From IMG/VR virus record IMGVR_UViG_3300035661_000005: 64,000 nucleotides of DNA; one strand, given 5' to 3'. The notes beneath the pieces are model-generated. The model was not told the origin of the DNA. It saw nothing but the letters and a program-made list of their open reading frames with translations, and did not search any database. Shown here in pieces: positions 12,775 to 59,090 of this stretch. Made by a program: the position numbers and the translations under genes. This DNA comes from a virus (Duplodnaviria; Caudoviricetes). Each line of letters starts with the position of its first letter. Within the stretch, counting starts at the first letter, position 1.

Positions 12775-12802
12775 TTGATCGGGGGCGTGTAGGCCCTGTA
12801 GA
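12775..12802 (+). promoter_or_regulatory. TTGATC-N16-TGTAGA promoter, ATG 6 nt downstream
   Basis: Exact motif and spacing seen at many intergenic sites. Confidence 0.8.
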
Positions 12803-12808
12803 TGGATC

Positions 12809-13057
12809 ATGGCAAAGCTCACGAAGTTCTGGGTGGTCCGGGACCCGAGCCCCGTCTCCGAGATCAACGACATCCTCTTCGAATCCGATCCGGTCAAGTA
12901 CGCGGCCTACTGCGTCGGGGCCGGGTACCGCAATGTCAAGGACGAGCACACCGCGGTATACACGACCGAGGGCGAGGCCAAGAAGGACGCCCTGGCGCGG
13001 CTCCAGGCGGAGAAGAAGCCCGTCTCGCCGTACCGTGCCCCGCCTCCCGAGGGGTAA
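12809..13057 (+). CDS. Hypothetical protein
   Basis: Leaderless promoter upstream, codon bias. Confidence 0.75.
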   Translation: MAKLTKFWVVRDPSPVSEINDILFESDPVKYAAYCVGAGYRNVKDEHTAVYTTEGEAKKDALARLQAEKKPVSPYRAPPPEG

Positions 13058-13098
13058 CAAGTACGGACTAACCCCTCCCGGTGTAAAGAGAGGGTGCC

Positions 13099-15357
13099 AT
13101 GTCGAGGACGTCCACCCCACACTGCTCGTTCTGCAACAAGCCTCGGAACGAGGTGAAGGCCCTCATCGGCAACGACGAGGGTCCGTACATCTGCAACCGT
13201 TGCCTGGAGAACGGCTTCCGGGCGCTCTCGAACGCCCGGAAGGCCGCCGCGCAGACGTCCGCCAAGGACGAGCCCCTCCGCAAGCCGCGGGAGATCAAGG
13301 CGACGCTCGACCAGCACGTCATCGCCCAGGACCGGGCCAAGATGGACATCGCGGTCGCCGTCTACAACCACTACAAGCGGCGCGAGGCGCTCAAAGCGGG
13401 CACCGACCTCGGCGGGGTCGAGATCGCCAAATCGAATATCCTCTTGATGGGGCCCTCCGGCTGCCATCGGCGGGGCCAACGCATCCTCATGTACGACGGA
13501 TCGCTTAAAGCGGTCGAAGACGTGCGGGTGGGGGACTGTGTGATGGGGCCTGACAGCACCCCTCGCAACGTCCTGGAGCTGCACACCGGCACGGAAGAGA
13601 TGGTCGAGATCACCCCGACCAAGGGGGCCCCCTGGGTCGTCAACAAGGGGCACATCTTGACGGTCTTCGAGTACGACAAGGGTCTCGTGGACGTGTCCCT
13701 TCGGGAGTGGTTGGGCTGGTCGGAGAAGCGTCGCACGGAGTCGAAACTCGTGCGCGTGGGCGTGGACTTCCCCCTCTCCGGGAAGACTCTTCCTATCGAG
13801 CCCTACTTTCTCGGGGTTCTGCTCGGAGACGGGTCGTTGGCCCCCCATGTTCGAGTGACCTCGGCGGACTCTGAGATCGTGGCGGCTGTTCGTGCCTGCG
13901 CCCAGGACTTCGGGCTCCAGGTCAACTCTTACGCAAAGGCCACCACTTCGGCCCGTGACTACGTTCTGGCTGGAACGAAGGGCAAACGGAACCCGGTGGC
14001 CGAAGCCCTCGACTCGTTGGGCTTGTGGGGCAGCCGTAGCGAGAACAAGTTCGTCCCTCAGTCGTACCTCACGGCATCGCGTGAAGATCGCTTGGCTCTT
14101 CTCGCTGGTCTGATCGACACCGATGGCTGTTACCGGGACAAGCCCCCTTGCTTCGATTTCACCAGCAAGTCGGAGAAGCTCGCCCAAGATGTCGCCTTCC
14201 TGGCCCGCAGCCTGGGCTTTGCGGCGTATCCCCGGCCGTTCATGAAAGACGGTACGGCGTACTTCCAGATGAGTATCTCGGGGGACATCGACACGATTCC
14301 GGTCAAGGTGGAGCGGAAGAAGGCTCGGGCTCGTCACGAAAATGGGCGGGACGTTCTGCGGGTCGGATTCACGACTCGCGACCTCCCGGCTGAGGAGTAC
14401 TTCGGCTTCGTCCTCGACGGCGACCATCGGTACCTGCTTGACGACTTCACCGTGACCCACAACACCGGCAAGACGGAGATCGCCCGCACGATCTCGAGGA
14501 TGCTCCGGGTGCCTTTCTTCGTCGGTGACGCCTCCCGACTGACCCAGGCGGGCTACGTCGGCGACGACGTGGAGTCCCTCCTCCAGGGGCTCGTGCAGGA
14601 TGCCGACGGAGACGTGGAACGCGCCCAGTGGGGGATCGTCTTCATCGACGAATTCGACAAGCTGGCCCGCAAGTCGGGCCGCGGTGCCACGGGCTACCGT
14701 GACGTCTCTGGGGAGGGTGTGCAGCAGGCCCTCCTCAAGATCCTCGAAGGCTCGAAGATCGTCGTCCCCCGCGGCATGGGGCGGGTCGCGATGGGGTCCG
14801 GTAGCGGGGACGTGTTCGACACCTCCAACGTGCTCTTCATCTGCGCGGGTTCGTTCGCGGGGATCGAGGAGGTCATCGAGAAGCGTGTGAACAACCGGGC
14901 GAGCCTCGGGTTCGGCGCCGCGGAGCGGAAGAAGCTCACCAAGACGGACATCTACCTCCATGTGACCGAGGATGACGTCCTGGAATTCGGCCTCATCCCG
15001 GAGCTGATGGGGCGTCTGCCGGTCTTGACGACGGTCGTGGATCTGACCGAGGATGAGATGGTGCGCATCCTGACGGAGCCGCGGAACGCGATCATCAAGC
15101 AGTTTCAGGCGCTTTTCTCAATCGACGGTATCGACCTCCAGTTCGACGAGGCAGCGCTCCGGGCCATCGCCCGGGAGGCCAAGATGCGGCCCACGGGCGC
15201 CCGTGCCTTGCGCTCCATCGTGGAGAAGGTGCTCCAACCCTACTGCTTCGACGCCCCGAGCGACCCGACCATCAAAGCGCTCCGGGTGACGGAGGAGACG
15301 GTGAACGGGACGGGCAAGGCGATCGTCGTGACCCGTGAGGCTGCCGCCACGGGTTGA
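13099..15357 (+). CDS. clpX: ClpX ATP-dependent unfoldase precursor containing an intein
   Basis: C4 zinc-binding domain CSFC..CNRC, V(I)AQDRAK, GPSG/TGKT Walker A, LTQAGYVGDDV, FIDEFDK, RDVSGEGVQQALLK, GAR.LRSIVE. Confidence 0.97.
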   Translation: MSRTSTPHCSFCNKPRNEVKALIGNDEGPYICNRCLENGFRALSNARKAAAQTSAKDEPLRKPREIKATLDQHVIAQDRAKMDIAVAVYNHYKRREALKAGTDLGGVEIAKSNILLMGPSGCHRRGQRILMYDGSLKAVEDVRVGDCVMGPDSTPRNVLELHTGTEEMVEITPTKGAPWVVNKGHILTVFEYDKGLVDVSLREWLGWSEKRRTESKLVRVGVDFPLSGKTLPIEPYFLGVLLGDGSLAPHVRVTSADSEIVAAVRACAQDFGLQVNSYAKATTSARDYVLAGTKGKRNPVAEALDSLGLWGSRSENKFVPQSYLTASREDRLALLAGLIDTDGCYRDKPPCFDFTSKSEKLAQDVAFLARSLGFAAYPRPFMKDGTAYFQMSISGDIDTIPVKVERKKARARHENGRDVLRVGFTTRDLPAEEYFGFVLDGDHRYLLDDFTVTHNTGKTEIARTISRMLRVPFFVGDASRLTQAGYVGDDVESLLQGLVQDADGDVERAQWGIVFIDEFDKLARKSGRGATGYRDVSGEGVQQALLKILEGSKIVVPRGMGRVAMGSGSGDVFDTSNVLFICAGSFAGIEEVIEKRVNNRASLGFGAAERKKLTKTDIYLHVTEDDVLEFGLIPELMGRLPVLTTVVDLTEDEMVRILTEPRNAIIKQFQALFSIDGIDLQFDEAALRAIAREAKMRPTGARALRSIVEKVLQPYCFDAPSDPTIKALRVTEETVNGTGKAIVVTREAAATG
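13462..14463 (+). mobile_element. Intein (334 aa) with LAGLIDADG endonuclease in the ClpX P-loop
   Basis: GPSG|CHRRGQRILMYDG ... LGVLLGDG, LLAGLIDTDG ... YLLDDFTVTHN|TGKT. Confidence 0.95.
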
Positions 15358-15381
15358 TCGGCGCCGAGCTGCCCCTGTAGA
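15354..15381 (+). promoter_or_regulatory. TTGATC-N16-TGTAGA promoter, ATG 6 nt downstream
   Basis: Exact motif overlapping the clpX stop. Confidence 0.8.
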
Positions 15382-15387
15382 TAGGGC

Positions 15388-15672
15388 ATGACCGACAGCG
15401 TCTCCCTCCGCGTCGACTACATGGTCCCGGTCCTGACGAAGTCGAACAAGCCGAAGACCTACGAGCTTCGGCGGTTCGTCCTGGCGAATCGGATCGGCGT
15501 GGACGACTACGCGACGCTCAAGAGCGACGCGAACAAGCTCTGGGGTATCTTCCGGGCGGGCTTCGAGGCCAAGCTGGCGGAGCCGCTCAAGGGGTGGCCG
15601 ATCCACTTCCGCGTTCCGAGGATCGTAGCAAGGCCAAGGCGAACAAATGAGCAAGTCCCGCCGATATTTTGA
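15388..15672 (+). CDS. Hypothetical protein
   Basis: Leaderless promoter, codon bias. Confidence 0.7.
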   Translation: MTDSVSLRVDYMVPVLTKSNKPKTYELRRFVLANRIGVDDYATLKSDANKLWGIFRAGFEAKLAEPLKGWPIHFRVPRIVARPRRTNEQVPPIF

Positions 15673-18993: not shown

Positions 18994-18994
18994 G

Positions 18995-19557: not shown

Positions 19558-20352
19558 ATGGACCCCAAGGCACCCAAGGTTATGGCCCGGTTCGCAGCGG
19601 CGGTCCTGCCGTTCAAGCCGAAGCCGAAAGTCCCAACCACGACGATTCGCGGGGACAAGTACGTCCTCTCGACCTTCGGTGGGATGCTCGGTGACCGGGA
19701 GGATGACGAGGCCAGCATGTTCGGCGGGCGTCTCATCGGACCGCCCCCGGGTGCGAACAAGTGGTGCTACCTCTGGGTCTACGATACCGAGCGCCAGGTC
19801 GTGGCCATGTGGCGGGCTTCGGACGGGGACGAGAAGTACCACGGGTCCCCCCGTTCCGCGACGAGCTACATCGTCATGCTGGACAAGCGGGGGCAGCTCA
19901 ACCGCGTCACCAACGCCGAATTCCGGGTCATCGAGTCCGAGATGCGGCAGCGGGAGGACGCGGCCATCAAGAGCATGCAGCAGACACTCGAAGAGGCCAA
20001 GAGCGAGGCCGAGCGTTCGCTCGACGACTACATTCGGACCTTCTTCGAGAAGTTCGTCCTGCCGAAGCTCCTTCGGGGCCTCTCGGACGTGAAGTCTGGG
20101 GCGACGCCGATCGGGTTCCGGCCGTTCGGACCGGCGGCGGAGGGTGATGCGGCTTGGCTCCTTCGGCAGAAGTCCAGTTACGTCCTCGGGGAGGTGTTCA
20201 AGCGCGAGATGGACCCAGAGAAGGTCGTCATGTGGCTCGAAGGACAGGGCTTCAACGTCGGCATCGTCCACAACCAGGCGATCGATTGGGCGATCGGGGA
20301 CGTGCGGGACGAGGCTGCGGAGAGGTACTTGCCCAAGGCGCCGTACGTTTGA
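19558..20352 (+). CDS. Hypothetical protein with N-terminal KVMARF tag
   Basis: Codon bias; MDPKAPKVMARFAAA. Confidence 0.8.
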   Translation: MDPKAPKVMARFAAAVLPFKPKPKVPTTTIRGDKYVLSTFGGMLGDREDDEASMFGGRLIGPPPGANKWCYLWVYDTERQVVAMWRASDGDEKYHGSPRSATSYIVMLDKRGQLNRVTNAEFRVIESEMRQREDAAIKSMQQTLEEAKSEAERSLDDYIRTFFEKFVLPKLLRGLSDVKSGATPIGFRPFGPAAEGDAAWLLRQKSSYVLGEVFKREMDPEKVVMWLEGQGFNVGIVHNQAIDWAIGDVRDEAAERYLPKAPYV

Positions 20353-20376
20353 TCGGGCACGCTCCTGGGCTGTAGA
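20349..20376 (+). promoter_or_regulatory. TTGATC-N16-TGTAGA promoter
   Basis: Exact motif; leadered transcript with AAGGAG SD. Confidence 0.8.
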
Positions 20377-20416: not shown

Positions 20417-20995
20417 ATGCAGAACATCCGCCTCGCCCACGCCAACATCGTCTCCGCGTTCGACCACGTTACCGTGGGCTCGAAGGTGATCGACCACGAC
20501 GGCTTCCTCCTGGCCGCGTGCGAGGCGATCCGAGCGTTCGACTTCGTCAGCCAGAAGGTCCCCGGGCAGGGGTTCATCATGTGCCCGGCCGCGGTCCCCT
20601 TCGTCTTGGCCGGCGCCGGCAAGAGGACCAAGGACCCGAACGACTTCGTTCTCCGTGTGTACCGGGGGGAGGTCCAGCCCTTCCTCCGCCGGGAGAAGGC
20701 GGCGCCGGTCGAGGGCTGCGCCCTGGTGATCTACACCAAGGAGGCGTACCTCGCGGCCCCAGATGTCGCTAGGGAGCCCGAGGAGGTCGCCCGCATCCAG
20801 GCGGAGGACCCGACCCACGTGGTCGTGGCGGTCCTGGCGTTCGCCGGCCCGAAGCCCCCGCTGACGCCCTACCGGCTCGTCCACAACCTCGCCGGGGGCA
20901 ACAAGGAGGCCCTCGTGTGGACGGCGGACGAGATCCGCGAGAAGGCGGTCGAGTCCCTCGCGTACGACCGCGAGTGGGCGACCGTGGCCGACTGA
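20417..20995 (+). CDS. Hypothetical protein, possibly DUF3228-like
   Basis: AAGGAG SD; LVIYTKEAY..., VVVAVLA..., P.TPYRLVHNLAGG pattern recalled from DUF3228 (uncertain). Confidence 0.75.
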   Translation: MQNIRLAHANIVSAFDHVTVGSKVIDHDGFLLAACEAIRAFDFVSQKVPGQGFIMCPAAVPFVLAGAGKRTKDPNDFVLRVYRGEVQPFLRREKAAPVEGCALVIYTKEAYLAAPDVAREPEEVARIQAEDPTHVVVAVLAFAGPKPPLTPYRLVHNLAGGNKEALVWTADEIREKAVESLAYDREWATVAD

Positions 20996-21394: not shown

Positions 21395-21422
21395 TTGATC
21401 AACCGGCCCTCGTCATTGTAGG
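21395..21422 (+). promoter_or_regulatory. TTGATC-N16-TGTAGG promoter
   Basis: Exact spacing; -35 lies inside the palindrome GTTGATCAAC. Confidence 0.65.
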
Positions 21423-21455
21423 TGTCTACGTGGTTGATCCCGAATGGTGTAAGAG

Positions 21456-22292
21456 ATGAGTGTGCGATCCGGCCGCCTTCTCCGTATGCCGTACTCTCTT
21501 TCCCGGTGGACAGACGTCCCTGCGGCGAAGTGGGAATGGTTCAAGGATCGGCTGGCCGAGGGCCACATGCTCGCCTTCAACCCCCAGGACGCGATCCCGT
21601 CCCGGTGGAGCTTGAAGCCCGCCGAGACGCTCGGACTGGTCTTCTGGACCAAGGATCCCTCGAACCTGATCGCGGACGCGGCGATCCTCCAAGACTTCCT
21701 CGTAAAGATCCACGTCACCGTGACCGGCTGGGGGGAGGTCGAGAAGGGTGCGCCGAGCCTTGCGCAAGGAGCACAATTGCTCTGCGAGGCGGCGCGGACG
21801 TTCGGAGCCGGGAACGTCACGTGGCGCTTTTCCCCTGTGCCCCTCGTCCCGGACGTGGTCGATCGGTTCCAGCGGATCGCTGCGATGGCCGAGGACGCGG
21901 GTGTGCAGAGCGTCTACCTGAGCTTCTTGCAGACGAACGACCGCATGGCAGAGACGCGAACCGCCGAGGAGCGTTTCGTCATCCTCCAGGAGATCGCCAA
22001 GAGCGCGGGGGGCCGGGGGATCAATGTGCGCCTGTGCAACGAGGACGGCCTGCTCCGTGGACGGGTGGACCTGTCCCCGAACCTGACCACGGGAATCTGC
22101 GCACCCCCCGAGGATTTTGCGTTATCGGGTTCGGCCAAGGCACCCGCGGAAGGCTGCGGGTGCGTCTTGATGGTGGACCCCTTCACCGTGAACGAGACTT
22201 GTTCTATCGGATGCCAATACTGCTACGCTGCGGACGAGACGCTTTCACCTCGGAAGCGGAACACGACTCGCAGCCTGCCCGTAGTACCATGA
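21456..22292 (+). CDS. DUF1848 family protein (radical-SAM/SP-lyase-like)
   Basis: SLSRWTDVPA, VFWTKDP, VTWRFSP, C-terminal GCGC...TC.IGCQYCYA. Confidence 0.85.
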   Translation: MSVRSGRLLRMPYSLSRWTDVPAAKWEWFKDRLAEGHMLAFNPQDAIPSRWSLKPAETLGLVFWTKDPSNLIADAAILQDFLVKIHVTVTGWGEVEKGAPSLAQGAQLLCEAARTFGAGNVTWRFSPVPLVPDVVDRFQRIAAMAEDAGVQSVYLSFLQTNDRMAETRTAEERFVILQEIAKSAGGRGINVRLCNEDGLLRGRVDLSPNLTTGICAPPEDFALSGSAKAPAEGCGCVLMVDPFTVNETCSIGCQYCYAADETLSPRKRNTTRSLPVVP

Positions 22293-24552: not shown

Positions 24553-24625
24553 TCGTGCCCCAGGCTGTCAGACCGAGGCATGTTCGAGCGTCCTCGGTCT
24601 GACGCCTCCGGTGTAAGGGCATTAC

Positions 24626-25000
24626 GTGACCCTTACCGAAGCGCAAGACAACGCCCTGTGTGTAAGCACCCGCAGGGTCCTGCTCAGCCACTTGATGGGC
24701 TTCATCTACGCCGAGAAGGTAAAGGTCGACCCTCGGTACGAAGCGTCTCTGCGAACGCAGAACGCTTTCTACGATGCAGCCCGGCACGAGTGGCTGAAGG
24801 TCGTCCGTGACCTCGGCAACATCTTCGAGCACAGGTGGCGGACCCACGTGTACGAGACGCTCCTGGGGCTTCGTGCGGGGGCCCTTCTCAAGGCTCGGCA
24901 GATGTTGATCGAGCTGGGGGTGGACGGGGAGACGGAGATCGCGCGGTACATCGAGACGATCGACCTGGGGGACCTCTTGCCCACCGCGGAGTGCCCGTGA
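24626..25000 (+). CDS. Hypothetical protein
   Basis: CGGTGTAAG element upstream. Confidence 0.7.
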   Translation: MTLTEAQDNALCVSTRRVLLSHLMGFIYAEKVKVDPRYEASLRTQNAFYDAARHEWLKVVRDLGNIFEHRWRTHVYETLLGLRAGALLKARQMLIELGVDGETEIARYIETIDLGDLLPTAECP

Positions 25001-28183: not shown

Positions 28184-28305
28184 CTCGGCCAAGTGCGGCT
28201 CCATCTTCTCCACGATGAACTCCCCGAACTCGCTGTAGCGGGGATGGGCTTCATGCTCTCTACAAAAAGCGACCCGGCGGACTTGTTTCGGTGTAAGAGG
28301 GGTCC

Positions 28306-29268
28306 ATGCCCTTCAGCCCCGAACAGCTTGCCAACATCAAGATCGTCGTCACTCACGAGAACTGCCAGGACGGGATGGCCTCGGCCCTCCTTCTGAAGGA
28401 TGCCTTGCGGGACCGGCCGGTCGACATCCGGTTCGTGCAGCACGGAACGGTGGCCCTTGCGGAGCTGAAGGCGGAGCCCGGGATGCTCTTCTGCGACTTC
28501 GCGCCCCCGGCGGAGCGGGCCCAGGAGTTCCTGGAGGCGGGGGCCCTCATCCTCGACCACCACCGGACCGCCAGGGCCGTCGTGGAGTCCTTCGGGGCCA
28601 ACGGCATCTTCGCGGACGAGAAGGCGAACCCGGGCGTCTGTGGGGCCGTCCTGGCCTACGAGCACGTCTGGAAGCCGCTCAACCCGGAGCCCGTATCGCA
28701 CGAAGCGGCGTGGATCGAGAACTTCGCCCGTCTCGCGGGCATCCGGGACACCTGGCAGCGGCAGAGCCCGGACTGGGAGAAGGCGTGTGCCCAGGCGGAG
28801 CTGCTCTTCTTCATGGGCCCCGATCGGCTCCTCGCGGGCACGCTGTCCGGGCTGGCGGCCAAGTGGGCGACGGACTTCACCTGGATCGGCGACGTGCTCA
28901 TGGAGCGCAACGCCCGGTCGGTCCAGAAGGGGATCAAGGGGGCCTTCCGGTTCAAGACCGGCAATGGGCTCCGGGTCATCATGTTCGAGGGTGTCAGCAA
29001 GTCGAGCGACACCGCCGAGGCCGTGGGGTCGGAGTTCGACCTCGTGATCGGCTTCGGCTACGTGTGCGACGACCCGGCCCGGCCCCCGAAGCTCATCCTC
29101 TCAACCCGCTCCCACACGGACTTCGACTGCGCGGCGTTCGTCAGCCGGTTCGGCGGGGGCGGGCACACCAAGGCGGCCGGCTGCACCATCGAGGCGGAGC
29201 CCCTGGAGGCGACCCCGAACCCCTACAAGCTCGTGATGGACCTCCTCGACCTCCATGAGCGAGGCTGA
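28306..29268 (+). CDS. DHH/DHHA1 phosphoesterase (NrnB/oligoribonuclease-like)
   Basis: VTHENCQDG, CDFA, ILDHHRT, GGGGHTKAAG. Confidence 0.9.
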   Translation: MPFSPEQLANIKIVVTHENCQDGMASALLLKDALRDRPVDIRFVQHGTVALAELKAEPGMLFCDFAPPAERAQEFLEAGALILDHHRTARAVVESFGANGIFADEKANPGVCGAVLAYEHVWKPLNPEPVSHEAAWIENFARLAGIRDTWQRQSPDWEKACAQAELLFFMGPDRLLAGTLSGLAAKWATDFTWIGDVLMERNARSVQKGIKGAFRFKTGNGLRVIMFEGVSKSSDTAEAVGSEFDLVIGFGYVCDDPARPPKLILSTRSHTDFDCAAFVSRFGGGGHTKAAGCTIEAEPLEATPNPYKLVMDLLDLHERG

Positions 29269-37462: not shown

Positions 37463-37490
37463 TTGATCGCGCAAACCTCGCCGATGTAGA
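37463..37490 (+). promoter_or_regulatory. TTGATC-N16-TGTAGA promoter
   Basis: Exact motif; GGAGG SD before 37517. Confidence 0.8.
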
Positions 37491-37516: not shown

Positions 37517-38380
37517 ATGCTCGACCTGCGCACCGTTCAGCTGACCTCGACCACCTACCCCGTCGTCCTCCAGCAGCTCATTGACGAGGTGGGTGAGATG
37601 GACGCGCACGAGGCGCATCTCGACCTCGACCTGCGGGGGATGGTCGGGCTGATGGGGAAGTACCCCCACAACAACGACGCCTACCACAACGGCGAGACGG
37701 TCCTCGTTCACGTCGGCTGGGTCATCGACGACGTCCACAAGACCACCGAGGGCTTCGACCCCGAGCGGCGCCAGGCGCTGCTTCTTGCGGGCCTCTTCCA
37801 CGACCTCGGGAAGGCTTACACCTACGCCTACAACGAAGAGAAGCAGAGGCACACCTTCTACGACCACCCGAAGGTCTCGGTATCGATCGCCGAGGTGCTC
37901 CTCGAACGCCACAAGGAGGCCTTGGGCGGGCTCTACCAGCGGGTCCTCGACCTGACCCGGCTCCACGACGTCCTCTTCGCCCTGGCGGCCAACAAGCCGA
38001 AGGGTGGGGGCTCGGTCAAGTACGTCGAGCTGCTCTTCAAGGAAGCCCTCCGTGTAGAGGGCTTCCTTGAAGACCTCCTGGCGTTCGCGAAGGCGGACTC
38101 GCACCGTGCCCGTTGCTACCAGGAGAAGCTCGCGGACATCGAGGGGATCCTCGTGGACCTGGAGCGCTTCAAGGGCGAAGCGGCGGCCAAGAAGGCGGAG
38201 AAGGCCCTCCTGGAGACCAACGCCAAGACCAAGCTGCCCGAGATTCAGGCGCTCCTCGTGGCGGAGGGGCTGCCAGCGGCGGCCGAGGAGCCGGACCTCA
38301 AGGCGATCCGGACCTACCTCGGGCGGGCGAAACGCTTCGAGCTAATCAAGCGGATCGAGGCGATTGTGACGGCTCCTTGA
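37517..38380 (+). CDS. HD-domain phosphohydrolase
   Basis: HN...GETVLVH, LAGLFHDLGK, HPKVS, RLHD, AKAD. Confidence 0.85.
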   Translation: MLDLRTVQLTSTTYPVVLQQLIDEVGEMDAHEAHLDLDLRGMVGLMGKYPHNNDAYHNGETVLVHVGWVIDDVHKTTEGFDPERRQALLLAGLFHDLGKAYTYAYNEEKQRHTFYDHPKVSVSIAEVLLERHKEALGGLYQRVLDLTRLHDVLFALAANKPKGGGSVKYVELLFKEALRVEGFLEDLLAFAKADSHRARCYQEKLADIEGILVDLERFKGEAAAKKAEKALLETNAKTKLPEIQALLVAEGLPAAAEEPDLKAIRTYLGRAKRFELIKRIEAIVTAP

Positions 38381-41849: not shown

Positions 41850-43174
41850 TGGCCTCCCTGGCAGAGCGTGTGGCGACCCGGTTCCTTCAGGCGGACGCCA
41901 TCGGGGATCCGAAGGAGCTGGTTCAGCCCTTTGCGAGCCTGGTCGACAGGCTTGCTGTGCATCGAACCGAGGCGGAGACGGCGCTCCCCTTCCTGCGACG
42001 GCTGCCCGACAACCTCCTGAGCAGTCTGAGCTTCTCGGATCGGCTCAGGGTCCGAGAAAGCGTCCCGGGGCTCGCGGAAGCCCTGAAGGTGGCCCATGAG
42101 GCATTCGGGGCCCTGACTTACCTGATCCCGAAGTTCGCGTACCCGGGCAGCCAACTCTTCCTCTCGATCATTCAGACGTACGCGCTGCCGGCGTCTCTGC
42201 GGAAGAAGATCGAGATGGCCTCCCGGACCTACATGAAGACGACCCGGCTGCGTTGGCCGAACGCCGAAGGTCTCTCGGGTGAGATCGCCCGCATCGAGGC
42301 GTACCTGAAGTACCTCGCCCTCTACGAGTCGCACCTCAACTACGCGAAGGAAGCCATCGCAAAGGGGAAGGGGCACACGGAAGAGGGCGCGGAGGCGACG
42401 AAGGTCCGCGTCGGCAGCTTCACGCTGGTCAACACGGGCGGCTTCTCGGCGGAGGTCATGGGCAACGTCGCGGAGGCCATGAAGAAGGCCGAGGCGCTGC
42501 TCAAGTCCAGCGGGTTCGGCATCGTCTGCTACGGCGACGTGCAGGTCACCAACACGATCTCGAAGGGGAACGTGCTGGCTTTCTACCTGCCCAGCAAGGA
42601 CGAACTGTTCATCCGGGCCAACTTGAAGCCGACGTCGGACAGCATCCACATCATCCTGCACGAGCTGGGGCACCGTTTCGAGGCGAAGAAGTTGTCCAGC
42701 CGAGCGGGTGACCTCCGACGCCTCTACAGCCTCATCAATGGGCAGGAGTACACCCGCAAGAAGGAGATGCGAGCCAAGAAGCCCCCGATCGGTGACAAGC
42801 TGGTCGACAAAGGCAAGACCTACGAGGTGGCGGGCTACGACGTCGGCCGCAACGGGCTCATGGTCGTGCTGAAGCAGGAGGGCGACCCTCGGATCCAAGC
42901 CAAGGTCTCGCTGGAGGGCTACCTCAGCCGGAAGGGCGAGGGGGGCGCCCGCAACGTCGACGAGACGCCGGACTTCAAGGGCTTCGTCACGGAGTACGCG
43001 AAGAAGACCCCCTCCGAGAACTTCGCCGAGATGTTCGCCTACTACTGCATGGGGCGCCTGCCGGTGCTCCAGAGCGTGGCGTTCGAGGAGCTGTGTTTCG
43101 GTTCGTCCGACCCGCCGGGTGAGAGCATCTTCACGGCCCGGCGGGTCGTGGCCCGCTGGATCATTCAGATGTAG
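41846..43174 (+). CDS. Zinc metallopeptidase, lethal factor-like (paralog 3, divergent)
   Basis: IILHELGHRF, YAKKTPSENFAEMF; tags ERVATRFL and RRVVARW; true start 41846. Confidence 0.8.
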   Translation: MMASLAERVATRFLQADAIGDPKELVQPFASLVDRLAVHRTEAETALPFLRRLPDNLLSSLSFSDRLRVRESVPGLAEALKVAHEAFGALTYLIPKFAYPGSQLFLSIIQTYALPASLRKKIEMASRTYMKTTRLRWPNAEGLSGEIARIEAYLKYLALYESHLNYAKEAIAKGKGHTEEGAEATKVRVGSFTLVNTGGFSAEVMGNVAEAMKKAEALLKSSGFGIVCYGDVQVTNTISKGNVLAFYLPSKDELFIRANLKPTSDSIHIILHELGHRFEAKKLSSRAGDLRRLYSLINGQEYTRKKEMRAKKPPIGDKLVDKGKTYEVAGYDVGRNGLMVVLKQEGDPRIQAKVSLEGYLSRKGEGGARNVDETPDFKGFVTEYAKKTPSENFAEMFAYYCMGRLPVLQSVAFEELCFGSSDPPGESIFTARRVVARWIIQM

Positions 43175-43443
43175 ATCGGCTCGCAGCCGCAGTGGTCGCA
43201 CTCCTCCCAGATTTGGGTGGTGCGGGTGGCGGTGCGACAGCACCGGGAGCAGCCCTGGCGGGCCGGCTTCGGCACGATGGAACAGATCCAGACGCCGTTG
43301 CCGGACCAGATGATCGTCTTGATCGTCTCGACCTTGGTATCACCGGACTTCTTGATCACGGTGACGACTTGGCCGGGCCGGACCTCTTCAGTCGATCGAA
43401 CGCCCCAGGAACCGTCACGCAACTTGGTGTAGGTGTTGGTCAT
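43165..43443 (-). CDS. Small phage protein with C-terminal Zn finger
   Basis: TYTKLRDGSWGVR..., CSRC...CDHCG; leaderless promoter. Confidence 0.8.
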   Translation of the reverse strand: MTNTYTKLRDGSWGVRSTEEVRPGQVVTVIKKSGDTKVETIKTIIWSGNGVWICSIVPKPARQGCSRCCRTATRTTQIWEECDHCGCEPIYI

Positions 43444-43449
43444 GGTGCT

Positions 43450-43477
43450 TCTACAGGGAAGGGAGGGTTTCGATCAA
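43450..43477 (-). promoter_or_regulatory. TTGATC-N16-TGTAGA promoter, ATG 6 nt downstream
   Basis: Exact motif. Confidence 0.8.
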
Positions 43478-44007: not shown

Positions 44008-44400
44008 TTACAGGGTCACCCGGATCTTGGTGTTGGGGTTGCCGTCCCACTCGATCCCCAGGCCCTCGGCGCGGAGCGCCTCGGTGACCAGCTTGCCGCA
44101 CTCGGCGGCCGGGAGGCCGAAGTCGCCCTGCTCGTGGACGCTGATCGGGCCGTACGCGATATAGAGTACCGGGCGGTCCTTGTTCCATCGGCGGCGCATC
44201 TGGGCGTCCACGTCCCGGGCGTCCTGGCGGGTGTAGAAGACGCACCCCTTGATCTTGGCGCGCCGCGACTCGGGCATCTTGCCTACGTCCGTCGCGATCT
44301 CGTACCCGGCGCACGAGCTGCAGCAGCTGAAGCTCTGGCGGGCGATGAAGCCCTGGGCGCGGAGGATCTTGAAGGCGGCGGTGAGCTTGGTGGTTTCCAT
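44008..44400 (-). CDS. DUF6891-like protein
   Basis: LTAAF..LRAQGFIARQSFSCCSSC, LVTEALRAEGL.IEWDG. Confidence 0.7.
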   Translation of the reverse strand: METTKLTAAFKILRAQGFIARQSFSCCSSCAGYEIATDVGKMPESRRAKIKGCVFYTRQDARDVDAQMRRRWNKDRPVLYIAYGPISVHEQGDFGLPAAECGKLVTEALRAEGLGIEWDGNPNTKIRVTL

Positions 44401-44406: not shown

Positions 44407-44434
44407 TCTACAAGGCGATGGGGTTGCCGATCAA
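44407..44434 (-). promoter_or_regulatory. TTGATC-N16-TGTAGA promoter, ATG 6 nt downstream
   Basis: Exact motif. Confidence 0.8.
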
Positions 44435-44577: not shown

Positions 44578-45567
44578 CTACGCGGCCATCAGGAGGGCCG
44601 TCTGGAGGGCTCGCGCGTTGACCCGGAGGGAGTCCCCGAACCAGAGGGAGTTGAGCCGGTTGTCCTCCGATGACCCCCGCTCGTGGGTCAGAAAATCCGT
44701 GGCAGCGTTGTAGAGGCCCCAGGCCGTGCCTCGCACGCCGGGGAGGTTGTTGCCCGCACCCTCCTCGAAGAGGCGGATGATCTTCGGCATGAGGCGCTCG
44801 CAGGAGTCCGTCTCCTCGGCGTTGGCGCCGCCCTCGATGACCTTCGGGTTGAAGACCCGGCGGACGAACTTCTCGATGTCGGCCTTGACGACGCCGCAGC
44901 GGGAGAGGGCACGGTACTGCTCGATCGTGGCGTTGAACTCGCCGGTGAGGTGCCCCATCGTCTCCTGGATGACCGCGAGGGCTTCCGTGGACTTCGCCGT
45001 GTGGCGGATGCGGAAGAGCTTCGAGCCGGCGTCCTTGTGCGCCATCGCGAGGGTGTTCGCGCACACGACCCTCGTGTTCGTCATGCCAGCCCGGATGGCC
45101 ATCGTTCCATCGTGCCCATTGGAGAGCAGGATGTAGCTGAGCACCGGGTCACCCGGAACGACATCAGCTTCCAGGCCCTTGATCTTGGCGAGCACCCAGA
45201 CGCGCCGCCCCTGGCGGAGGCTGCCGGCCGCTTCGAGGCTCGCGGCGCCCATGTCGAGGAACGGTTGAAACCAGTTGAACGCGTCGGCGTTCTGGAGGGG
45301 CTTGTAGGTCGGGCCGACCACGCCGAGGACCGAGCGGTCGGTCTCGCGCACCGTGGCGTAACCGGGGACCGGCAGATCCTCGCCGTCGTAGCTCATGTGG
45401 AGCGGCTGAAGCCGCACCTTCCAGTCGAGCCCGGCCGCCACGATCGCGTCCGGGATCGTCAGCTCGGTTCCCTCGGGGAACACCTTGCCGAGGCGGTGCC
45501 AGGCGGGCTCCCCGACGAAGAAAGCGTTGGCGGTCCCGTTGAGGTTCGTCTCGATTTCGTGGGCCAT
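44578..45567 (-). CDS. DUF932 family protein
   Basis: PAWHRLG, AAGLDWKV, LGVVG..Y.PLQN.DAF, AGSLRQGRRVW, NGHDGT, RVVCANTL, RHT, GTAWGLYNA. Confidence 0.88.
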   Translation of the reverse strand: MAHEIETNLNGTANAFFVGEPAWHRLGKVFPEGTELTIPDAIVAAGLDWKVRLQPLHMSYDGEDLPVPGYATVRETDRSVLGVVGPTYKPLQNADAFNWFQPFLDMGAASLEAAGSLRQGRRVWVLAKIKGLEADVVPGDPVLSYILLSNGHDGTMAIRAGMTNTRVVCANTLAMAHKDAGSKLFRIRHTAKSTEALAVIQETMGHLTGEFNATIEQYRALSRCGVVKADIEKFVRRVFNPKVIEGGANAEETDSCERLMPKIIRLFEEGAGNNLPGVRGTAWGLYNAATDFLTHERGSSEDNRLNSLWFGDSLRVNARALQTALLMAA

Positions 45568-45613: not shown

Positions 45614-45641
45614 TCTACACCGGGCTACCCTGAAGGATCAA
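45614..45641 (-). promoter_or_regulatory. TTGATC-N16-TGTAGA promoter
   Basis: Exact motif; leadered with AGAGGAG SD to the DUF932 gene. Confidence 0.8.
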
Positions 45642-46001: not shown

Positions 46002-46029
46002 TTGATCATCCCGGATCTCGATTTGTAGG
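46002..46029 (+). promoter_or_regulatory. TTGATC-N16-TGTAGG promoter, ATG 6 nt downstream
   Basis: Exact motif. Confidence 0.75.
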
Positions 46030-46035: not shown

Positions 46036-46269
46036 ATGGCCCTATCCTGCATCTACTGCGAATGCGGCTGCCAAGGGCACGGTTGCGAACTGGCGCCAGG
46101 CATCAGCTTCTGGATCTACGCCGACGGCCGGGGGCGGTTCACGCTGCACCGAGGCCACAGGTACAACCTGCCCAAAAGCAACGACTTCAAGACCTTCGAG
46201 ATGCGAGGACCGGACGCGACCAGACCTACTGCGGGCACTGGAAACGTTCGGTTCTCGCATCTGAGATGA
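46036..46269 (+). CDS. Small Cys-rich protein
   Basis: CIYCECGC.GHGC; leaderless promoter. Confidence 0.6.
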   Translation: MALSCIYCECGCQGHGCELAPGISFWIYADGRGRFTLHRGHRYNLPKSNDFKTFEMRGPDATRPTAGTGNVRFSHLR

Positions 46270-46390: not shown

Positions 46391-46411
46391 CAGGTGGTGT
46401 AGACCCCGACC

Positions 46412-46978
46412 ATGAAACTGACTAAGCAGATCGACATCGCGGAGGGGCTAGCGCGGGCATGGATGCCCAGCTTCCGCCAAGTCCCTCCAGGGCAGCCTCC
46501 ACGTCCCGCCTGGGAGCATCCAGCGGACCTGGTGCGCCTCCTCTCCGAGCGACGGGGGGACTACTCCGAGGCGGAGCAGCTGATGGCCGTGGCGATGGCC
46601 TGGACGCACGACCTCATCGAGGACGGCGTCAAGCCCGATGGGTCCCGCGTCACGGCGGGCGACCTCCGGGCTCACCCTTTCGACGTCCGGATCATCCAGG
46701 GAGTCATCCAGCTGACGAACCCACACGGCGTCTCGAAGACCCGCTACTACGAGACGCTCAAGAACATTGACTACCTCGCGAAGCTCGTGAAGTGCGTAGA
46801 CCACATCTGCAACCTCCGGGAAGGGAAGGACATCTTCGAGCCCGCCAGGTGGAAGCAGTACGTCGAGGAGACCCGCACGTACATCCGACCGCTGGCTCAG
46901 ACGCTCCGGGACGAGACGCGGGACTGGCTCTGGCTGGAGATGGATCGGGCCATGGCAGCCCGCCCGGTGAACGCATGA
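46412..46978 (+). CDS. HD-domain protein, (p)ppGpp-hydrolase/Mesh1-like
   Basis: EHP..LV, AWTHDLIED, F...I...VIQLT, LVKCVDHICNL. Confidence 0.75.
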   Translation: MKLTKQIDIAEGLARAWMPSFRQVPPGQPPRPAWEHPADLVRLLSERRGDYSEAEQLMAVAMAWTHDLIEDGVKPDGSRVTAGDLRAHPFDVRIIQGVIQLTNPHGVSKTRYYETLKNIDYLAKLVKCVDHICNLREGKDIFEPARWKQYVEETRTYIRPLAQTLRDETRDWLWLEMDRAMAARPVNA

Positions 46979-49311: not shown

Positions 49312-49426
49312 GTTCAGGCGGGGCAGGCGGGGATCCCCGATCGAGATTTCGACTACGTGCTCAACAACGTGCCCACGTTTGGAAGATCTCCGAAGGCTCG
49401 CGCTGGTCTTGGTGTAAGAGGAAACC

Positions 49427-49639
49427 ATGGCGAACGAACCGACTCAGGAAGTGGGGCCCAAGAAGCGGCGTGGTTTCGCGGCGATGTCTGCGGAGAAGCA
49501 GAGGGAGATCGCGAGTCGCGGCGGGAAGGCTGCCCACGCGAAGGGCACGGCGCACGTGTTCGATTCCGAAGAGGCCAGGGAGGCCGGTCGGAAGGGCGGC
49601 GTGGCGGCGCAGAAGGCCCGAGCCTCCAAGCCTACGTGA
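49427..49639 (+). CDS. KGG-motif general stress protein
   Basis: RRGFAAMSAEKQREIASRGGKAAH...EEAREAGRKGG. Confidence 0.93.
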   Translation: MANEPTQEVGPKKRRGFAAMSAEKQREIASRGGKAAHAKGTAHVFDSEEAREAGRKGGVAAQKARASKPT

Positions 49640-52358: not shown

Positions 52359-52528
52359 CAGCAGTCGACGCCAGCCTTGCGCACGGGCTCCGGCTGGTAG
52401 AAATCGGCGAGCTGGTCGACGGTCTGGCTCAGGAGCCATTCGCGGATGGCACGGAGCAGCTGATCGGCGAATTCGATGGCCAGCCCATCCAGGGCGTTCT
52501 TCAGACTCTGCTTCTTCGGCATGCGCAT
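52358..52528 (-). CDS. 56-aa hypothetical protein
   Basis: Translated manually (MRMPKKQSLKNALDG...); CGGTGTAAG upstream; coupled stop/start. Confidence 0.6.
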   Translation of the reverse strand: MRMPKKQSLKNALDGLAIEFADQLLRAIREWLLSQTVDQLADFYQPEPVRKAGVDC

Positions 52529-52550
52529 CGCTTACACCGAAGGGACGGCT

Positions 52551-53297: not shown

Positions 53298-54164
53298 TCA
53301 GGGCTTGACGCAGTAAGTCCAGCAATAGAGCCCGCTGCCGGGGTTCGCCTCCCACTTGCCCGTCGCGAGGTTCAGCTGCCACCACTTGCCGAACGAGTCC
53401 GTCGAGACGGAGTTGATGCAGTCGGCCGGGCCAGGCGTCAGGGCCGGGTACTCGAAGGTCGATCCGAGCGCCCACCCGCATGTGTTCGGCAGACCCGACA
53501 TCGTGTCGTAGTGGTAGGGCAAGAGGCTGTCGATCTGAGCCTTCGTCGCCGGCTGCCACCCCGACCCGACCCAGCTCGTACACATCGCCGCCGCGTTGCT
53601 GGCCGGCTTGGTCATCGGACTGAGGGCCGGCTTGGCCGTCCAGTTGATGCCGAGCTTGGCGTCGTGGATGGCCGCGATGGCGGTGGAGGGACCGCTCGGG
53701 TTCGGGATGGTCACCGACGAGAACCTGGTCGGTGCCGTACAGGCGCAGGTCAGGGTGCCGCTGGTGGCGTTGCAGGAGAGCCCACAGGGGTCGGCCACGG
53801 CATCCCAGGCAGAGCCCGTCGTGTTGCACTTCTCCGGGACGAGTCCGTTGCAGCGGACCTCACCCGCCATGCAGGCCGGAGGCGGCTCCGTGTCGACCGT
53901 CCCGGTGTCTTTGGCGTCCGGGTCGCTGGTGTCCAGAAGGCCCGTGTCGGGCGTCTGCGTGTCCGGTTGCTGGGTGTCCGTCCCCGAATCGGCCTGGGGG
54001 GCCGTGTCGGTGGAGGTGTCGGTGGAGCCGTCGCTGGTCTCCGCGGGGCTATCGCTGGTCTCCGCGGGGTCGGCGTCGTTGGGGTTTTGCTGGGGGAACT
54101 CGAAGTTGGCGCCGGAGCACCCGACCATCAGGACGGTCAGCAGGGGGAGGCTGGAGTACTTCAT
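53298..54164 (-). CDS. Lipoprotein with D/T/P-rich linker, Cys-rich repeat and DUF1566/Lcl-like domain
   Basis: Lipobox LMVGC; C.AG..RC.G...C; IHDAKLGINW...AMC...W. Confidence 0.8.
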   Translation of the reverse strand: MKYSSLPLLTVLMVGCSGANFEFPQQNPNDADPAETSDSPAETSDGSTDTSTDTAPQADSGTDTQQPDTQTPDTGLLDTSDPDAKDTGTVDTEPPPACMAGEVRCNGLVPEKCNTTGSAWDAVADPCGLSCNATSGTLTCACTAPTRFSSVTIPNPSGPSTAIAAIHDAKLGINWTAKPALSPMTKPASNAAAMCTSWVGSGWQPATKAQIDSLLPYHYDTMSGLPNTCGWALGSTFEYPALTPGPADCINSVSTDSFGKWWQLNLATGKWEANPGSGLYCWTYCVKP

Positions 54165-54170: not shown

Positions 54171-54198
54171 CTTACAAGGTCAGAGTATGTCCGATCAA
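54171..54198 (-). promoter_or_regulatory. TTGATC-N16-TGTAAG promoter, ATG 6 nt downstream
   Basis: Exact spacing. Confidence 0.75.
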
Positions 54199-56324: not shown

Positions 56325-56717
56325 TCAACCGTCGTCCTTCGTGAGTCGTTCGAAGTCCGTCTGCGGGGGAGGTTCCGCCTCCGGAGCCGGTGGGGCGGTC
56401 TTCTCGATGACCTTGAAGTGGGGTATGGGAGTGGGCTGGAAGGTCAGCCCGACCGTCTCCTGCAACATCCTCTCTGCAACCTGTCGCTGTACCGCGTGCG
56501 CATCTCGAATCGCCTGGACGGCGTTCATGAGCGAACGGTTGAGGTCGAGCTGGTTCCGCACCGCCAGCTCAAGCCGCTCGACCCGGTTCGCGAGCTGCGT
56601 CACCCGGTTCGGCATGTGATCTGGCATCACGGCGCGGCTACGCCACACCCAGTACGAAATGAGACCGTAACAGGCGAGCAGGGTGGCGTTGATGATCACC
56701 GAGGCGGTGGGGCTCAC
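56325..56717 (-). CDS. Membrane-anchored coiled-coil protein with acidic tag
   Basis: N-terminal TM; ends TDFERLTKDDG. Confidence 0.7.
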   Translation of the reverse strand: MSPTASVIINATLLACYGLISYWVWRSRAVMPDHMPNRVTQLANRVERLELAVRNQLDLNRSLMNAVQAIRDAHAVQRQVAERMLQETVGLTFQPTPIPHFKVIEKTAPPAPEAEPPPQTDFERLTKDDG

Positions 56718-56820
56718 GGTTCCCTTCTACACCGTTGATCGCCGGTCTGGTGCCTTGTAGAAAGGGCATGGGCGTCTACCTCTAGAGCTGGATCCGCTTG
56801 CGCTGGTGTAAGGGACAGGC

Positions 56821-57402
56821 GTGCTGATCGACCTTTCACGCAAGCCGATTCTCGTCATTCCGCACGAAAGCCCAGGACATCTCGTGGTTCGGACCATCGG
56901 GAACGCCGAGGTCACGGGCCTTGTCTCCAGGCTCTACGAAGCGGACAGCCGCTGGACCAAGGCCCTGATGCAGGTGGTCGATCCCGGGGGCACCTTCAAC
57001 CGGGGCGCGCTCACCTGCTACGAGACCCGCGTCCCTTGCGAGGTCCCCTTCAACCGGGACGCCGCCAGCAGCGCCGAGCAACCGATCCTCCCGAACCCCT
57101 ACGAGGTGGCTACTGTTTTCGTAGACGCGGTCACCAAGTTTCATGGCCTGTGGCGGATCGCGATCCAGATGGAGCCGTGCCGCAACAAGAACGGGCACAT
57201 CTACGAGTGGGTCTGTACTTGCACCCATATCGGGGCGCAGGTGGGGACACCGCTCGTGTCCTGCGTCTTGAGGGACCTGGAGACGCTCGGCTTCAGGGAG
57301 ACGCCGAAGAAGGAAATCTTCCCTATCAACCGGCATCTCAAGCAGACGGCAGAGGGCGGTCAACCCGAGACGGACTGGGATCGTCTCAAGAGCGACGAGT
57401 GA
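56821..57402 (+). CDS. Hypothetical protein with acidic tag
   Basis: Ends ETDWDRLKSDE. Confidence 0.8.
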   Translation: MLIDLSRKPILVIPHESPGHLVVRTIGNAEVTGLVSRLYEADSRWTKALMQVVDPGGTFNRGALTCYETRVPCEVPFNRDAASSAEQPILPNPYEVATVFVDAVTKFHGLWRIAIQMEPCRNKNGHIYEWVCTCTHIGAQVGTPLVSCVLRDLETLGFRETPKKEIFPINRHLKQTAEGGQPETDWDRLKSDE

Positions 57403-57439
57403 AGCGCGTGATCCTGACTTCGAAAAACTCCCGAAGAAC

Positions 57440-58277: not shown

Positions 58278-58280
58278 CTT

Positions 58281-58562
58281 TCATCTCCTTGCGCGGCGTA
58301 CGGCTTCGTCGAATCGAGAGTCCTTCTCGCGGCGCCGTATCAGCCGCACCTCTCGCTGGTCGTAGAATTCCTCATCTTCGTCCTCGATGTCCACGACGAC
58401 CGGCGGAGGGTCGTACCTCTCCGAGGCGGGGTCACCATCGAACGGGGACCACCCGAGAAGGCGGTCGAAAGCAGACGGGATCCGCTTCCGTCCCAGCTCC
58501 TTCTTCTTGGCCTTTTCCATCGCCTTGCGCTCGATGACCCGGTGGTCCGTGTTGTCGATCAC
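58281..58562 (-). CDS. Hypothetical charged protein
   Basis: Internal PSAFDRLLG; GGAG SD to the next gene. Confidence 0.7.
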   Translation of the reverse strand: MIDNTDHRVIERKAMEKAKKKELGRKRIPSAFDRLLGWSPFDGDPASERYDPPPVVVDIEDEDEEFYDQREVRLIRRREKDSRFDEAVRRARR

Positions 58563-59032
58563 GGTGGCGTACTGCCAGTACTCGCCCCCTCAAGGCATTT
58601 AGGGCAGGTGACCTTCCCGCCAGCCTGCAGCCGATCCAGGAAGAAGTCATCCCTGCATGGGGAGTAGGCGCTGGCCCCCTCGACCCCATTGACGACGTGA
58701 ACCAGGCCGTCCTTGATGGCGGTGGCGATGGGCTTGTCGACCCGCTCCAGGATGAGGACCCCCTGTCCGGCCTTGGCGCGGTCCAGCGTCACGAGGGGGT
58801 AGACGTAGGTCTCGTAGCGGGGGCGCTCGCCGAAAGACCACATCTCGTACCCCAGCTCGTAGACGGGGACCTTGTCGGGAATGTGTGGGGAACCCGAGCC
58901 CGAGGTCAGTCGTATGTAGTCTGGCGGGCCGTACCGACCGGGGAGCAACGCCGCAACCCGGGACGACCGCTCGAAAACCGTCGATGTCCCCTCCAGGCGG
59001 AGCACTATCTGGTAGAGGGGTCGATTGCGCAT
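58559..59032 (-). CDS. Hypothetical protein
   Basis: C-terminal VTCPKC; TGGTGTAAA upstream. Confidence 0.6.
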   Translation of the reverse strand: MRNRPLYQIVLRLEGTSTVFERSSRVAALLPGRYGPPDYIRLTSGSGSPHIPDKVPVYELGYEMWSFGERPRYETYVYPLVTLDRAKAGQGVLILERVDKPIATAIKDGLVHVVNGVEGASAYSPCRDDFFLDRLQAGGKVTCPKCLEGASTGSTPP

Positions 59033-59062
59033 GGAACCAATGGGGCTTTACACCAAGCCCGG

Positions 59063-59090
59063 TTGATCTGGGAGCCCCCCGACCTGTAGA
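59063..59090 (+). promoter_or_regulatory. TTGATC-N16-TGTAGA promoter, ATG 6 nt downstream
   Basis: Exact motif. Confidence 0.8.

Follow-up and report, generated by a model that had tools for sequence, protein, structure and literature searches.

We describe a bipartite element with a rigid 16-nt spacer, GGTTGATC-N16-TGTARR, that recurs immediately ahead of genes in 64,000 nt of the uncultured huge phage recorded in IMG/VR as IMGVR_UViG_3300035661_000005 (Duplodnaviria; Caudoviricetes). This whole stretch is hereafter called the window. The element, which carries a TTGATC −35 box and is termed class 1 here, is best read as a promoter for the host multisubunit RNA polymerase equipped with a phage-encoded sigma factor of the extracytoplasmic function (ECF)-like, or group-4-like, kind, a reading to which we give a probability of roughly 0.6. 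As judged from sequence, the class-1 regulon is probably dependent on this phage sigma, expressed at delayed-early or middle times, largely leaderless and composed of accessory genes. A second element, GGTGTA-N10-start (class 2), is found in a different register.

Exact TTGATC-N16-TGTARR matches number 11 in the window, a density of 170 per Mb, and none arose in 100 dinucleotide-preserving shuffles. When the spacer was allowed to vary from 12 to 21 nt, 11 of the 12 window sites had N16 and one had N15, with all other lengths empty; over the same range, 67 of 69 sites in a related IMG/VR contig, G002, had the 16-nt spacer. Genes were called with a purpose-built caller that uses codon usage only and is blind to the motif. 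These genes cover 86% of the window and contain none of the 11 sites, and every site is oriented toward the adjacent downstream gene. The class-1 feature is real and strongly non-random.

At seven of the 11 sites an ATG begins exactly 6 nt past the TGTARR hexamer. Each of these ATGs is the earliest possible start of its open reading frame (ORF) in a mechanical ORF list, and the motif-blind caller chose the motif-linked ATG in six of the seven cases. By our own estimate, which takes ATG to occur at ~1% of positions, seven of 11 at one fixed offset would arise by chance with a probability of ~1e-11. Both the 11 sites and the seven coupled start codons are as given in the original prediction. The seventh nucleotide past the hexamer is A in 8/11 sites. 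Behind the four remaining sites (20349, 21395, 37463 and 45641), the called genes begin 20–57 nt from the predicted transcription start, and three of the leaders (20349, 37463 and 45641) contain a Shine-Dalgarno-like stretch. The class-1 sites of the window, with the reading predicted for each, are as follows.

12775..12802, plus strand: predicted leaderless ATG at 12809, 6 nt past the hexamer; 82-residue ORF 12809-13057.
15354..15381, plus strand: predicted leaderless ATG at 15388; 94-residue ORF, the first of a gene run up to 18768.
20349..20376, plus strand: site with a leader, predicted start on G 20383; AAGGAG in the leader; gene 20417-20995.
21395..21422, plus strand: site with a 27-nt leader; DUF1848 gene, ATG 21456 taken as the true start; class-2 core at 21446 inside the leader.
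37463..37490, plus strand: site with a 20-nt leader; GGAGGG in the leader; HD-domain gene 37517-38380.
43450..43477, minus strand: predicted leaderless ATG at 43443; 92-residue ORF 43165-43443.
44407..44434, minus strand: predicted leaderless ATG at 44400; DUF6891 protein 44008-44400, domain match from residue 3.
45614..45641, minus strand: site with a 40-nt leader; GGTG also precedes TGTAGA; GAGGAG in the leader; DUF932 gene 44578-45567.
46002..46029, plus strand: site with TGTAGG; predicted leaderless ATG at 46036; 77-residue Cys-rich ORF 46036-46269.
54171..54198, minus strand: site with TGTAAG; predicted leaderless ATG at 54164; 288-residue ORF whose first 16 residues resemble a lipoprotein signal peptide with a lipobox.
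59063..59090, plus strand: predicted leaderless ATG at 59097; 55-residue ORF.
61708..61744, minus strand: site with one mismatch, TCGATC-N16-TGTAGA-N6-ATG, ahead of a 33-codon ORF.

Three further observations concern these sites. The DUF1848 gene is preceded by tandem putative class-1 and class-2 promoters (21395-21464, plus strand), and the class-2 core is positioned for a leaderless GTG at 21462, from which the product would be two residues shorter than from ATG 21456. The lone N15 site (56733-56790, plus strand) lies between the divergent genes 56325-56717 (minus) and 56821 (plus), and the ATG 6 nt past its TGTAGA opens an ORF of a mere five codons. GATC, which forms part of the −35 box, is 2.1–2.8-fold over-represented relative to base composition across the whole window and G002, and CTAG is 5–10-fold under-represented.

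To define the geometry, 78 class-1 sites from the window and G002 were pooled, with the start codon or the conserved A set as +1. The consensus comprises G(−36) G(−35), TTGATC at −34 to −29, a weakly C-rich spacer of otherwise unconserved sequence, and TGTAG(G/A) at −12 to −7; T(−12), G(−11), T(−10) and A(−9) are invariant in 78/78 sites, and −13 is C in 58%. Position +1 is A in 78% and −1 is C in 72%, also where the ATG comes 1–3 nt later (ACC-ATG). In G002, the ATG lies at offset 6 in 38 of 67 sites and at offset 9 in 11 of 67, mostly as ACC-ATG, and the seventh nucleotide past the hexamer is A in 53 of 67. The pyrimidine at −1 and purine at +1, kept where the ATG shifts 1–3 nt onward, is what a transcription start would be expected to look like. 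The share of putatively leaderless sites is 64% in the window and 57% in G002. At the seven window sites the ATG is the first start of its ORF, and the 6 nt between hexamer and ATG leave no functional Shine-Dalgarno. Two of the N-termini have independent backing: the ORF from 54164 (minus strand) has its lipoprotein-like signal peptide and lipobox at residue 1, and in the ORF from 44400 (minus strand) the DUF6891 match sets in at residue 3. Ahead of the −35 box, AT-richness of the UP-element kind is absent in the window and weak in G002. The promoter and the leaderless geometry put forward in the original prediction are strongly supported by position, orientation, the C(−1)/A(+1) pattern, ATGs that mark true N-termini and the recurrence of the motif in relatives.

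The register separates class 1 from promoters of primary sigma factors. ECF-type promoters have a near-invariant spacer and a −10 core of CGT or GT(A/C) at about −12 to −9 with no need for A(−11) or T(−7), and class 1 has both features. The housekeeping form, TAnnnT with A(−11) and T(−7), is not found: −11 is G in 100% of pooled sites, −7 is G or A with no preference for T, and TA falls at −10/−9. With G invariant at −11 and no preference for T at −7, the class-1 register is incompatible with primary-sigma TAnnnT. Compared with TTGACA, the −35 box shares TTGA and has TC in place of CA, and the spacer is fixed at 16 rather than 17 ± 1 nt. The earlier description as sigma70-like therefore holds at the level of the sigma70 superfamily, while the architecture (rigid spacer, TGTA at −12 to −9, G at −11 and no T at −7) resembles that of ECF promoters and of the promoter box attributed to the phage phiEco32 sigma gp36.

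Relatives of the phage were found by scanning IMG/VR with the motif plus ATG, which returned several huge contigs with many matches each. Counts of TTGATC-N16-TGTARR sites and of a reversed-pattern control were as follows.

G001, 235 kb: 46 sites, control 0.
G002, 350 kb: 67 sites, control 0.
G003, 275 kb: 28 sites, control 0.
G004, 128 kb: 22 sites, control 0.

The window is collinear with G002 over ~50 kb at 35–70% protein identity, and no nucleotide similarity was detectable between the window and the relatives' loci fetched at that stage. Site counts and synteny together therefore show that the motif is conserved across a deep phage clade. In one further clade member (assembly GCA_902730345.1) the element reads GGTTGATC-N16-TGTAGT followed by ATG. 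More distant relatives, found through a 732-residue protein (L001–L012), lack the class-1 motif. Our literature search found no description of either the motif or the clade.

These relatives also supply a candidate reader. G002 encodes P0121, a protein of 302 residues whose start codon lies 6 nt past a perfect class-1 motif and which matches the general sigma70/ECF model TIGR02937 (E 6e-4); this broader model was needed, as a Pfam Sigma70_r2 search of G001–G004 gave no match. The P0121 family comprises 190 clusters at 50% identity. Among 40 aligned members 18 match Sigma70_r2, and the best matches of the family profile to Protein Data Bank sequences, though weak, are to sigma factors. An alignment-based AlphaFold2 model of P0121 (predicted local distance difference test, pLDDT, 83.5; a single-sequence fold was useless at pLDDT 40) has mostly sigma factors as its top structural matches, many of them ECF (SigE of Mycobacterium tuberculosis (Mtb), SigH, SigW, sigmaE region 2, AlgU and SigK; Z 6–8). 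The matches cover the C-terminal domain and domain 2, the latter interrupted by some 80 inserted residues. The phiEco32 gp36 chain 9m7y_F is also among them (Z 5.7), and Foldseek with the same model gave no match at E ≤ 0.001. Four large clade members (G002, G015, G016 and G017) encode the family; a related-locus search with P0121 alone returned only the contigs of P0121 itself, G001 and G002. No anti-sigma was seen.

Two other proteins were considered as readers. The TIGR02937 search also picked up P0122 (L069:12427-13131, minus strand; G002 212427-213131), a sigma-related protein of 235 residues in which a clear Sigma70 region 4 and a second helix-turn-helix-like repeat, though no region 2, could be detected; P0122 may serve another promoter class. 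A multisubunit RNA polymerase of the phage was dropped from consideration, since six-frame ORFs of the window and G002 contain no DFDGD-type catalytic motif, a search by which a divergent enzyme could be missed.

The class-1 motif varies together with the predicted sigma. In six lineages the gene for a putative two-domain sigma (domains 2 and 4) stands behind a copy of the motif, in the following forms.

G002, L149 and L170: TTGATC-N16-TGTAG ahead of the sigma gene.
L150 and L151: TTGATC-N16-CGTAG ahead of the sigma gene.
G015: CTGAAC-N15-CGTAGT ahead of the sigma gene.

P0121 and P0123 (56% identical) pair with TGTAG, P0125 and P0128 (45% identical) pair with CGTAG, and the G015 sigma is nearest to the P0125/P0128 pair; by sequence comparison, the motif variants follow the sigma phylogeny. 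The G015 form is not confined to the sigma gene. The whole genome holds 37 TGAAC-N14-17-CGTAG sites, nearly all with N15, against four in the control, and just one TTGATC-type site, the reverse of the pattern in G002 and G003. In the 60 kb of G015 that were examined, an ATG lies 6 nt past CGTAGT in 14 of 25 sites. A canonical TTGAC(A/T/G)-N16-18-TAnnnn box is present upstream of the sigma gene, ~60–130 nt further out, in seven lineages (L150, L151, G015, L170, L171, L172 and L173). ECF sigma genes as a rule have such a layout, with a housekeeping promoter ahead of the one that the sigma itself reads. These canonical boxes would show what the primary sigma of the hosts recognises and would supply initial expression for an autoregulated sigma. 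The original prediction had left timing as early or middle; middle or delayed early is more likely than immediate early, because the relatives indicate a phage-encoded ECF-like sigma and not a host sigma.

The genes behind class-1 sites differ from the rest of the window. The first genes (n = 9) have a median length of 94 residues, and none of the nine has a G002 homologue, compared with 37 of 86 other genes. Recognisable products are the DUF6891, DUF932, DUF1848 and HD-domain proteins and the lipoprotein. By these properties, class-1 genes look like accessory genes with fast turnover.

We propose that a canonical TTGAC(A/T/G)-type promoter would first allow the host housekeeping sigma to transcribe the phage sigma gene, that the phage sigma would then amplify expression of its own gene through the class-1 copy ahead of it, and that it would next turn on its regulon, in which most members are small accessory genes particular to the lineage. 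At each class-1 promoter, the −35 box would occupy −34 to −29 and the −10 box −12 to −7, with transcription starting on the A 7 nt past the hexamer. In about two-thirds of sites this A would be the first base of the start codon, giving an mRNA without leader or Shine-Dalgarno that would be translated leaderless, and the other sites would give ordinary leaders of 20–40 nt, mostly with a Shine-Dalgarno-like stretch.

Several observations weigh against a phage-encoded ECF-like reader. The sigma family was found only in relatives, and no homologue lies within the window; the gene would be carried by this genome outside it. G016 and G017 carry the P0121 family and neither of the tested motif variants. 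The structural Z-scores of 6–8 are middling for helical proteins, and P0122 could be the true class-1 reader. In the window the −35 box, GGTTGATC, lacks the AAC typical of ECF promoters and looks like the housekeeping TTGACA; AAC is found in the sister lineage G015 (CTGAAC). Both the transcription start and the leaderless state are deduced from geometry alone. Finally, motif and sigma could have changed in step because phages diverged along with their hosts, which is less likely given that the canonical TTGACA boxes keep their sequence next to a motif that varies.

The resemblance of TTGATC to TTGACA gives rise to the foremost alternative, in which class 1 is an early promoter for the host housekeeping sigma, with TAG(A/G)NN serving as the −10 box at 18-nt spacing and the phage sigma being an early gene that directs another class such as GGTGTA. 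The TTGA of the −35 box fits the universal consensus, class-1 genes share with many early genes a small size, fast evolution and restriction to one lineage (0/9 with a G002 homologue), a sigma gene behind a class-1 motif would suit a classical early-to-middle cascade, and canonical sigma70-type promoters are nearly absent from the window and G002. A −10 box of TAG(A/G)NN, however, would leave the start A only 5 nt past it, outside the range usual for start selection in Escherichia coli, and the start-codon register places the invariant G at −11 with no T at −7. The spacing is also far more rigid than for primary sigmas, and the sister lineage shifts to CTGAAC/CGTAG, the textbook ECF form, with canonical TTGACA boxes unchanged alongside in the same genomes.

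Nor is any bacterial genome enriched for class 1. A scan for GGTTGATC-N16-TGTAGR-N6-ATG across 185,579 bacterial and archaeal species (one genome each) gave 63 matches in unrelated taxa, below our own rough chance estimate of ~100–140, and more than one match per contig occurred only on a single 3.7-kb, phage-fragment-like contig of a metagenome-assembled genome (MAG). In five bacterial genomes counted directly (three Planctomycetota genomes, one Sorangium genome and one MAG labelled 'delta proteobacterium'), class-1 density was at background, with 0.2–1.2 per Mb compared with the 170 per Mb of the window. We consider recognition by the housekeeping sigma unlikely.

Still less probable is that class 1 is read by an alternative (ECF or stress) sigma of the host that infection switches on and the phage exploits, the phage sigma-like protein having some other target. 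The ECF-like architecture of class 1 would fit such a factor, and host ECF regulons are small, so absence from an exact-match genome scan is uninformative. This explanation nevertheless leaves no reason for the motif to stand ahead of the phage sigma gene in six lineages and to change with its phylogeny, and dozens of sites per phage genome would hang on a host factor that is normally inactive. That class 1 is instead a protein-binding or RNA signal near start codons (acting as an operator, enhancing translation or standing in for a Shine-Dalgarno) is very improbable: the G002 hexamer is often the Shine-Dalgarno-like TAGGAG, but the boxes have no dyad symmetry, the spacer is unconserved, and the −35/−10/start geometry, strict orientation and intergenic position suit a promoter. 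The hexamer was rejected as a Shine-Dalgarno in its own right, as it is mostly TGTAGA in the window, without the core, and Shine-Dalgarno-like stretches end merely 2–4 nt before the ATG.

A phage-encoded reader of class 1 would have a counterpart in phiEco32, whose sigma gp36 is thought to read an AATGTA box centred at −11.5 at middle and late promoters (PMC12276001). Like gp36, the predicted clade sigma would be a phage-encoded, highly divergent two-domain factor that redirects the host core polymerase, and TGTA falls at −12 to −9 in both, taking the class-1 start codon as +1. Unlike in phiEco32, class 1 includes a strong, rigidly spaced −35 box and has C rather than A before TGTA, its transcripts are predicted to be mostly leaderless, and the clade sigma gene is apparently autoregulated; there is also no detectable sequence similarity between gp36 and the clade sigma.

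Bacterial ECF (group 4) sigmas include Bacillus subtilis sigmaW, with the consensus TGAAAC-N16-CGTATA, and E. coli sigmaE. Class 1 shares with their promoters a bipartite structure, a rigid 15–16-nt spacer, a (C/T)GTA −10 core, a sigma gene preceded by both its own and a housekeeping promoter, and a sigma with domains 2 and 4 only; the CTGAAC-N15-CGTAGT of G015 is essentially the sigmaW form. It differs in that the −35 box of the window, TTGATC, lacks AAC, the sigma is phage-borne with an insertion of ~80 residues in domain 2, and the regulon comprises dozens of promoters per genome coupled to start codons.

The lambda cI transcript from PRM is a leaderless mRNA. Leaderless transcriptomes are described for Actinobacteria and Deinococcus (e.g. 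Cortes et al. 2013, cited in PMC7403470). In these systems, as in class 1, a −10 box stands at a fixed distance from the start codon and the RNA begins, or here would begin, with AUG and no Shine-Dalgarno. Their box, TANNNT, has T(−12)A(−11) and is recognised by the primary sigma, whereas class 1 has TGTAG 2 nt nearer the start codon, and in class 1 most starts of one phage regulon are predicted to be leaderless, a feature conserved throughout a clade of phages.

Sigma cascades of large phages are known from SPO1 (gp28, gp33/34) and T4 (gp55). There too an early gene encodes a sigma that steers the host polymerase to phage-specific promoters, with several classes per genome (here classes 1 and 2). 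The clade sigma belongs to a different family, its promoter is apparently autoregulatory, and the promoters are fused to start codons. Phage sigmas, ECF autoregulation and leaderless mRNAs are thus each known, and their combination, scale and conservation across a huge-phage clade amount to what is new here.

If the phage-sigma reading is right, the regulatory logic of an uncultured clade of 250–530-kb huge phages, from the phage sigma and its autoregulation to the genes under its control, would be defined from sequence alone. Leaderless initiation would be the main mode of a whole phage regulon and not that of an occasional gene, with a bearing on how widely efficient leaderless translation is spread among environmental bacteria. 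More tentatively, the clade may have evolved co-evolving ECF-like sigma/promoter pairs hard-wired to the start codon, in which a portable cassette of ~37 bp, free of a ribosome binding site, expresses dozens of accessory genes with rapid turnover from leaderless mRNAs and may provide a translation channel independent of Shine-Dalgarno initiation. The naturally diverged pairs TTGATC/TGTAG, TTGATC/CGTAG and CTGAAC/CGTAG are candidate orthogonal expression parts. For annotation, the class-1 motif would fix the true starts of many small ORFs that are overlooked or wrongly placed by gene callers.

The second element is likewise coupled to start codons. GGTGTA-N10-(A/G)TG has 15 window sites, with 0.28 expected. 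A [CT]GGTGTA[AG] element shortly before start codons had been predicted, with examples near 472, 13080, 24608, 28289, 49411, 56803 and 59668; all of these were found, and the conserved part is better written as GGTGTA-N10-start. The start codons lie 8 nt past TGTARR, a few at 9–11 nt, and not at 6. Across the window and G002 there are 62 GGTGTA-N10-start sites, 38 of them with C directly before the start codon. Counted from the start codon, TA falls at −12/−11, which places it 2 nt farther upstream than its class-1 counterpart; class 2 is thus not a class-1 promoter minus its −35 box. The two classes, being in different registers, are probably served by different factors. Class-2 counts were at background in one genome each of Actinomycetota, Acidobacteriota, Gemmatimonadota, Cyanobacteria and Verrucomicrobiota. 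The sites precede conserved genes (AAA+ ATPase, clpX) as well as others.

472..491, plus strand: class-2 element GGTGTAAG, ATG 489 of the intein-bearing AAA+ gene, 9 nt past the hexamer.
5960..5978, plus strand: GGTGTA-N10-ATG, gene 5976-6578.
13080..13101, plus strand: class-2 element before clpX, ATG 13099, 11 nt past the hexamer.
21446..21464, plus strand: GGTGTA-N10-GTG, GTG 21462 in frame, two codons inside the DUF1848 ORF.
24610..24628, plus strand: GGTGTA-N10-GTG, ORF 24626-25000.
28290..28308, plus strand: GGTGTA-N10-ATG, gene 28306-29268, conserved in G002.
46396..46414, plus strand: GGTGTA-N10-ATG, gene 46412-46978.
49411..49429, plus strand: GGTGTA-N10-ATG, gene 49427-49639.
52520..52538, minus strand: GGTGTA-N10-ATG.
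56715..56733, minus strand: GGTGTA-N10-GTG, gene 56325-56717.
56805..56823, plus strand: GGTGTA-N10-GTG, ORF from 56821.
59669..59687, plus strand: GGTGTA-N10-GTG, gene 59685-60941.
62385..62403, minus strand: GGTGTA-N10-GTG, gene 61965-62387.

One further GGTGTA-N10-ATG match (43426-43444, plus strand) is antisense to the start of the putatively leaderless gene 43165-43443 and may be due to chance, its ATG being the reverse complement of that region.

The window has a GC content of 64%, and its DNA is present in microbial-mat and sediment metagenome runs; two queries listed no RNA run that contains it. No close match to it was found among GenBank phages (megablast, 10 kb), and Joint Genome Institute (JGI) metagenome contigs held no exact match to one 52-mer from it. 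Its proteins include a GT51 transglycosylase, an AAA+ ATPase and ClpX. The genes for the AAA+ ATPase (489-3443, plus strand) and ClpX (13099-15357, plus strand) are each split by an intein with a LAGLIDADG homing-endonuclease domain, and the G002 orthologues of both are without inteins. ClpX homologues gave no lead to the host, as they came without taxonomy. A weak lead comes from L081 (contig CAIXWQ010000077.1, 3.7 kb), which was binned in a 10.7-Mb MAG labelled delta proteobacterium. This contig, in all probability a fragment of a phage, carries two back-to-back putative class-1 leaderless promoters, and a similar class-1 site lies on another contig of the same bin.

Scans of the window for tRNA genes and Rfam families gave no matches. 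The sole window match to TTGAC[AT]-N16-19-TAnnnn, TTGACA-N16-TACTGT, lies in a 525-nt intergenic gap (7553-7675, plus strand). About 50 nt downstream of this box is a strong GC-rich hairpin followed by a T-run, without an Rfam match, and box and hairpin together suggest a host-sigma-driven RNA gene of ~85 nt.

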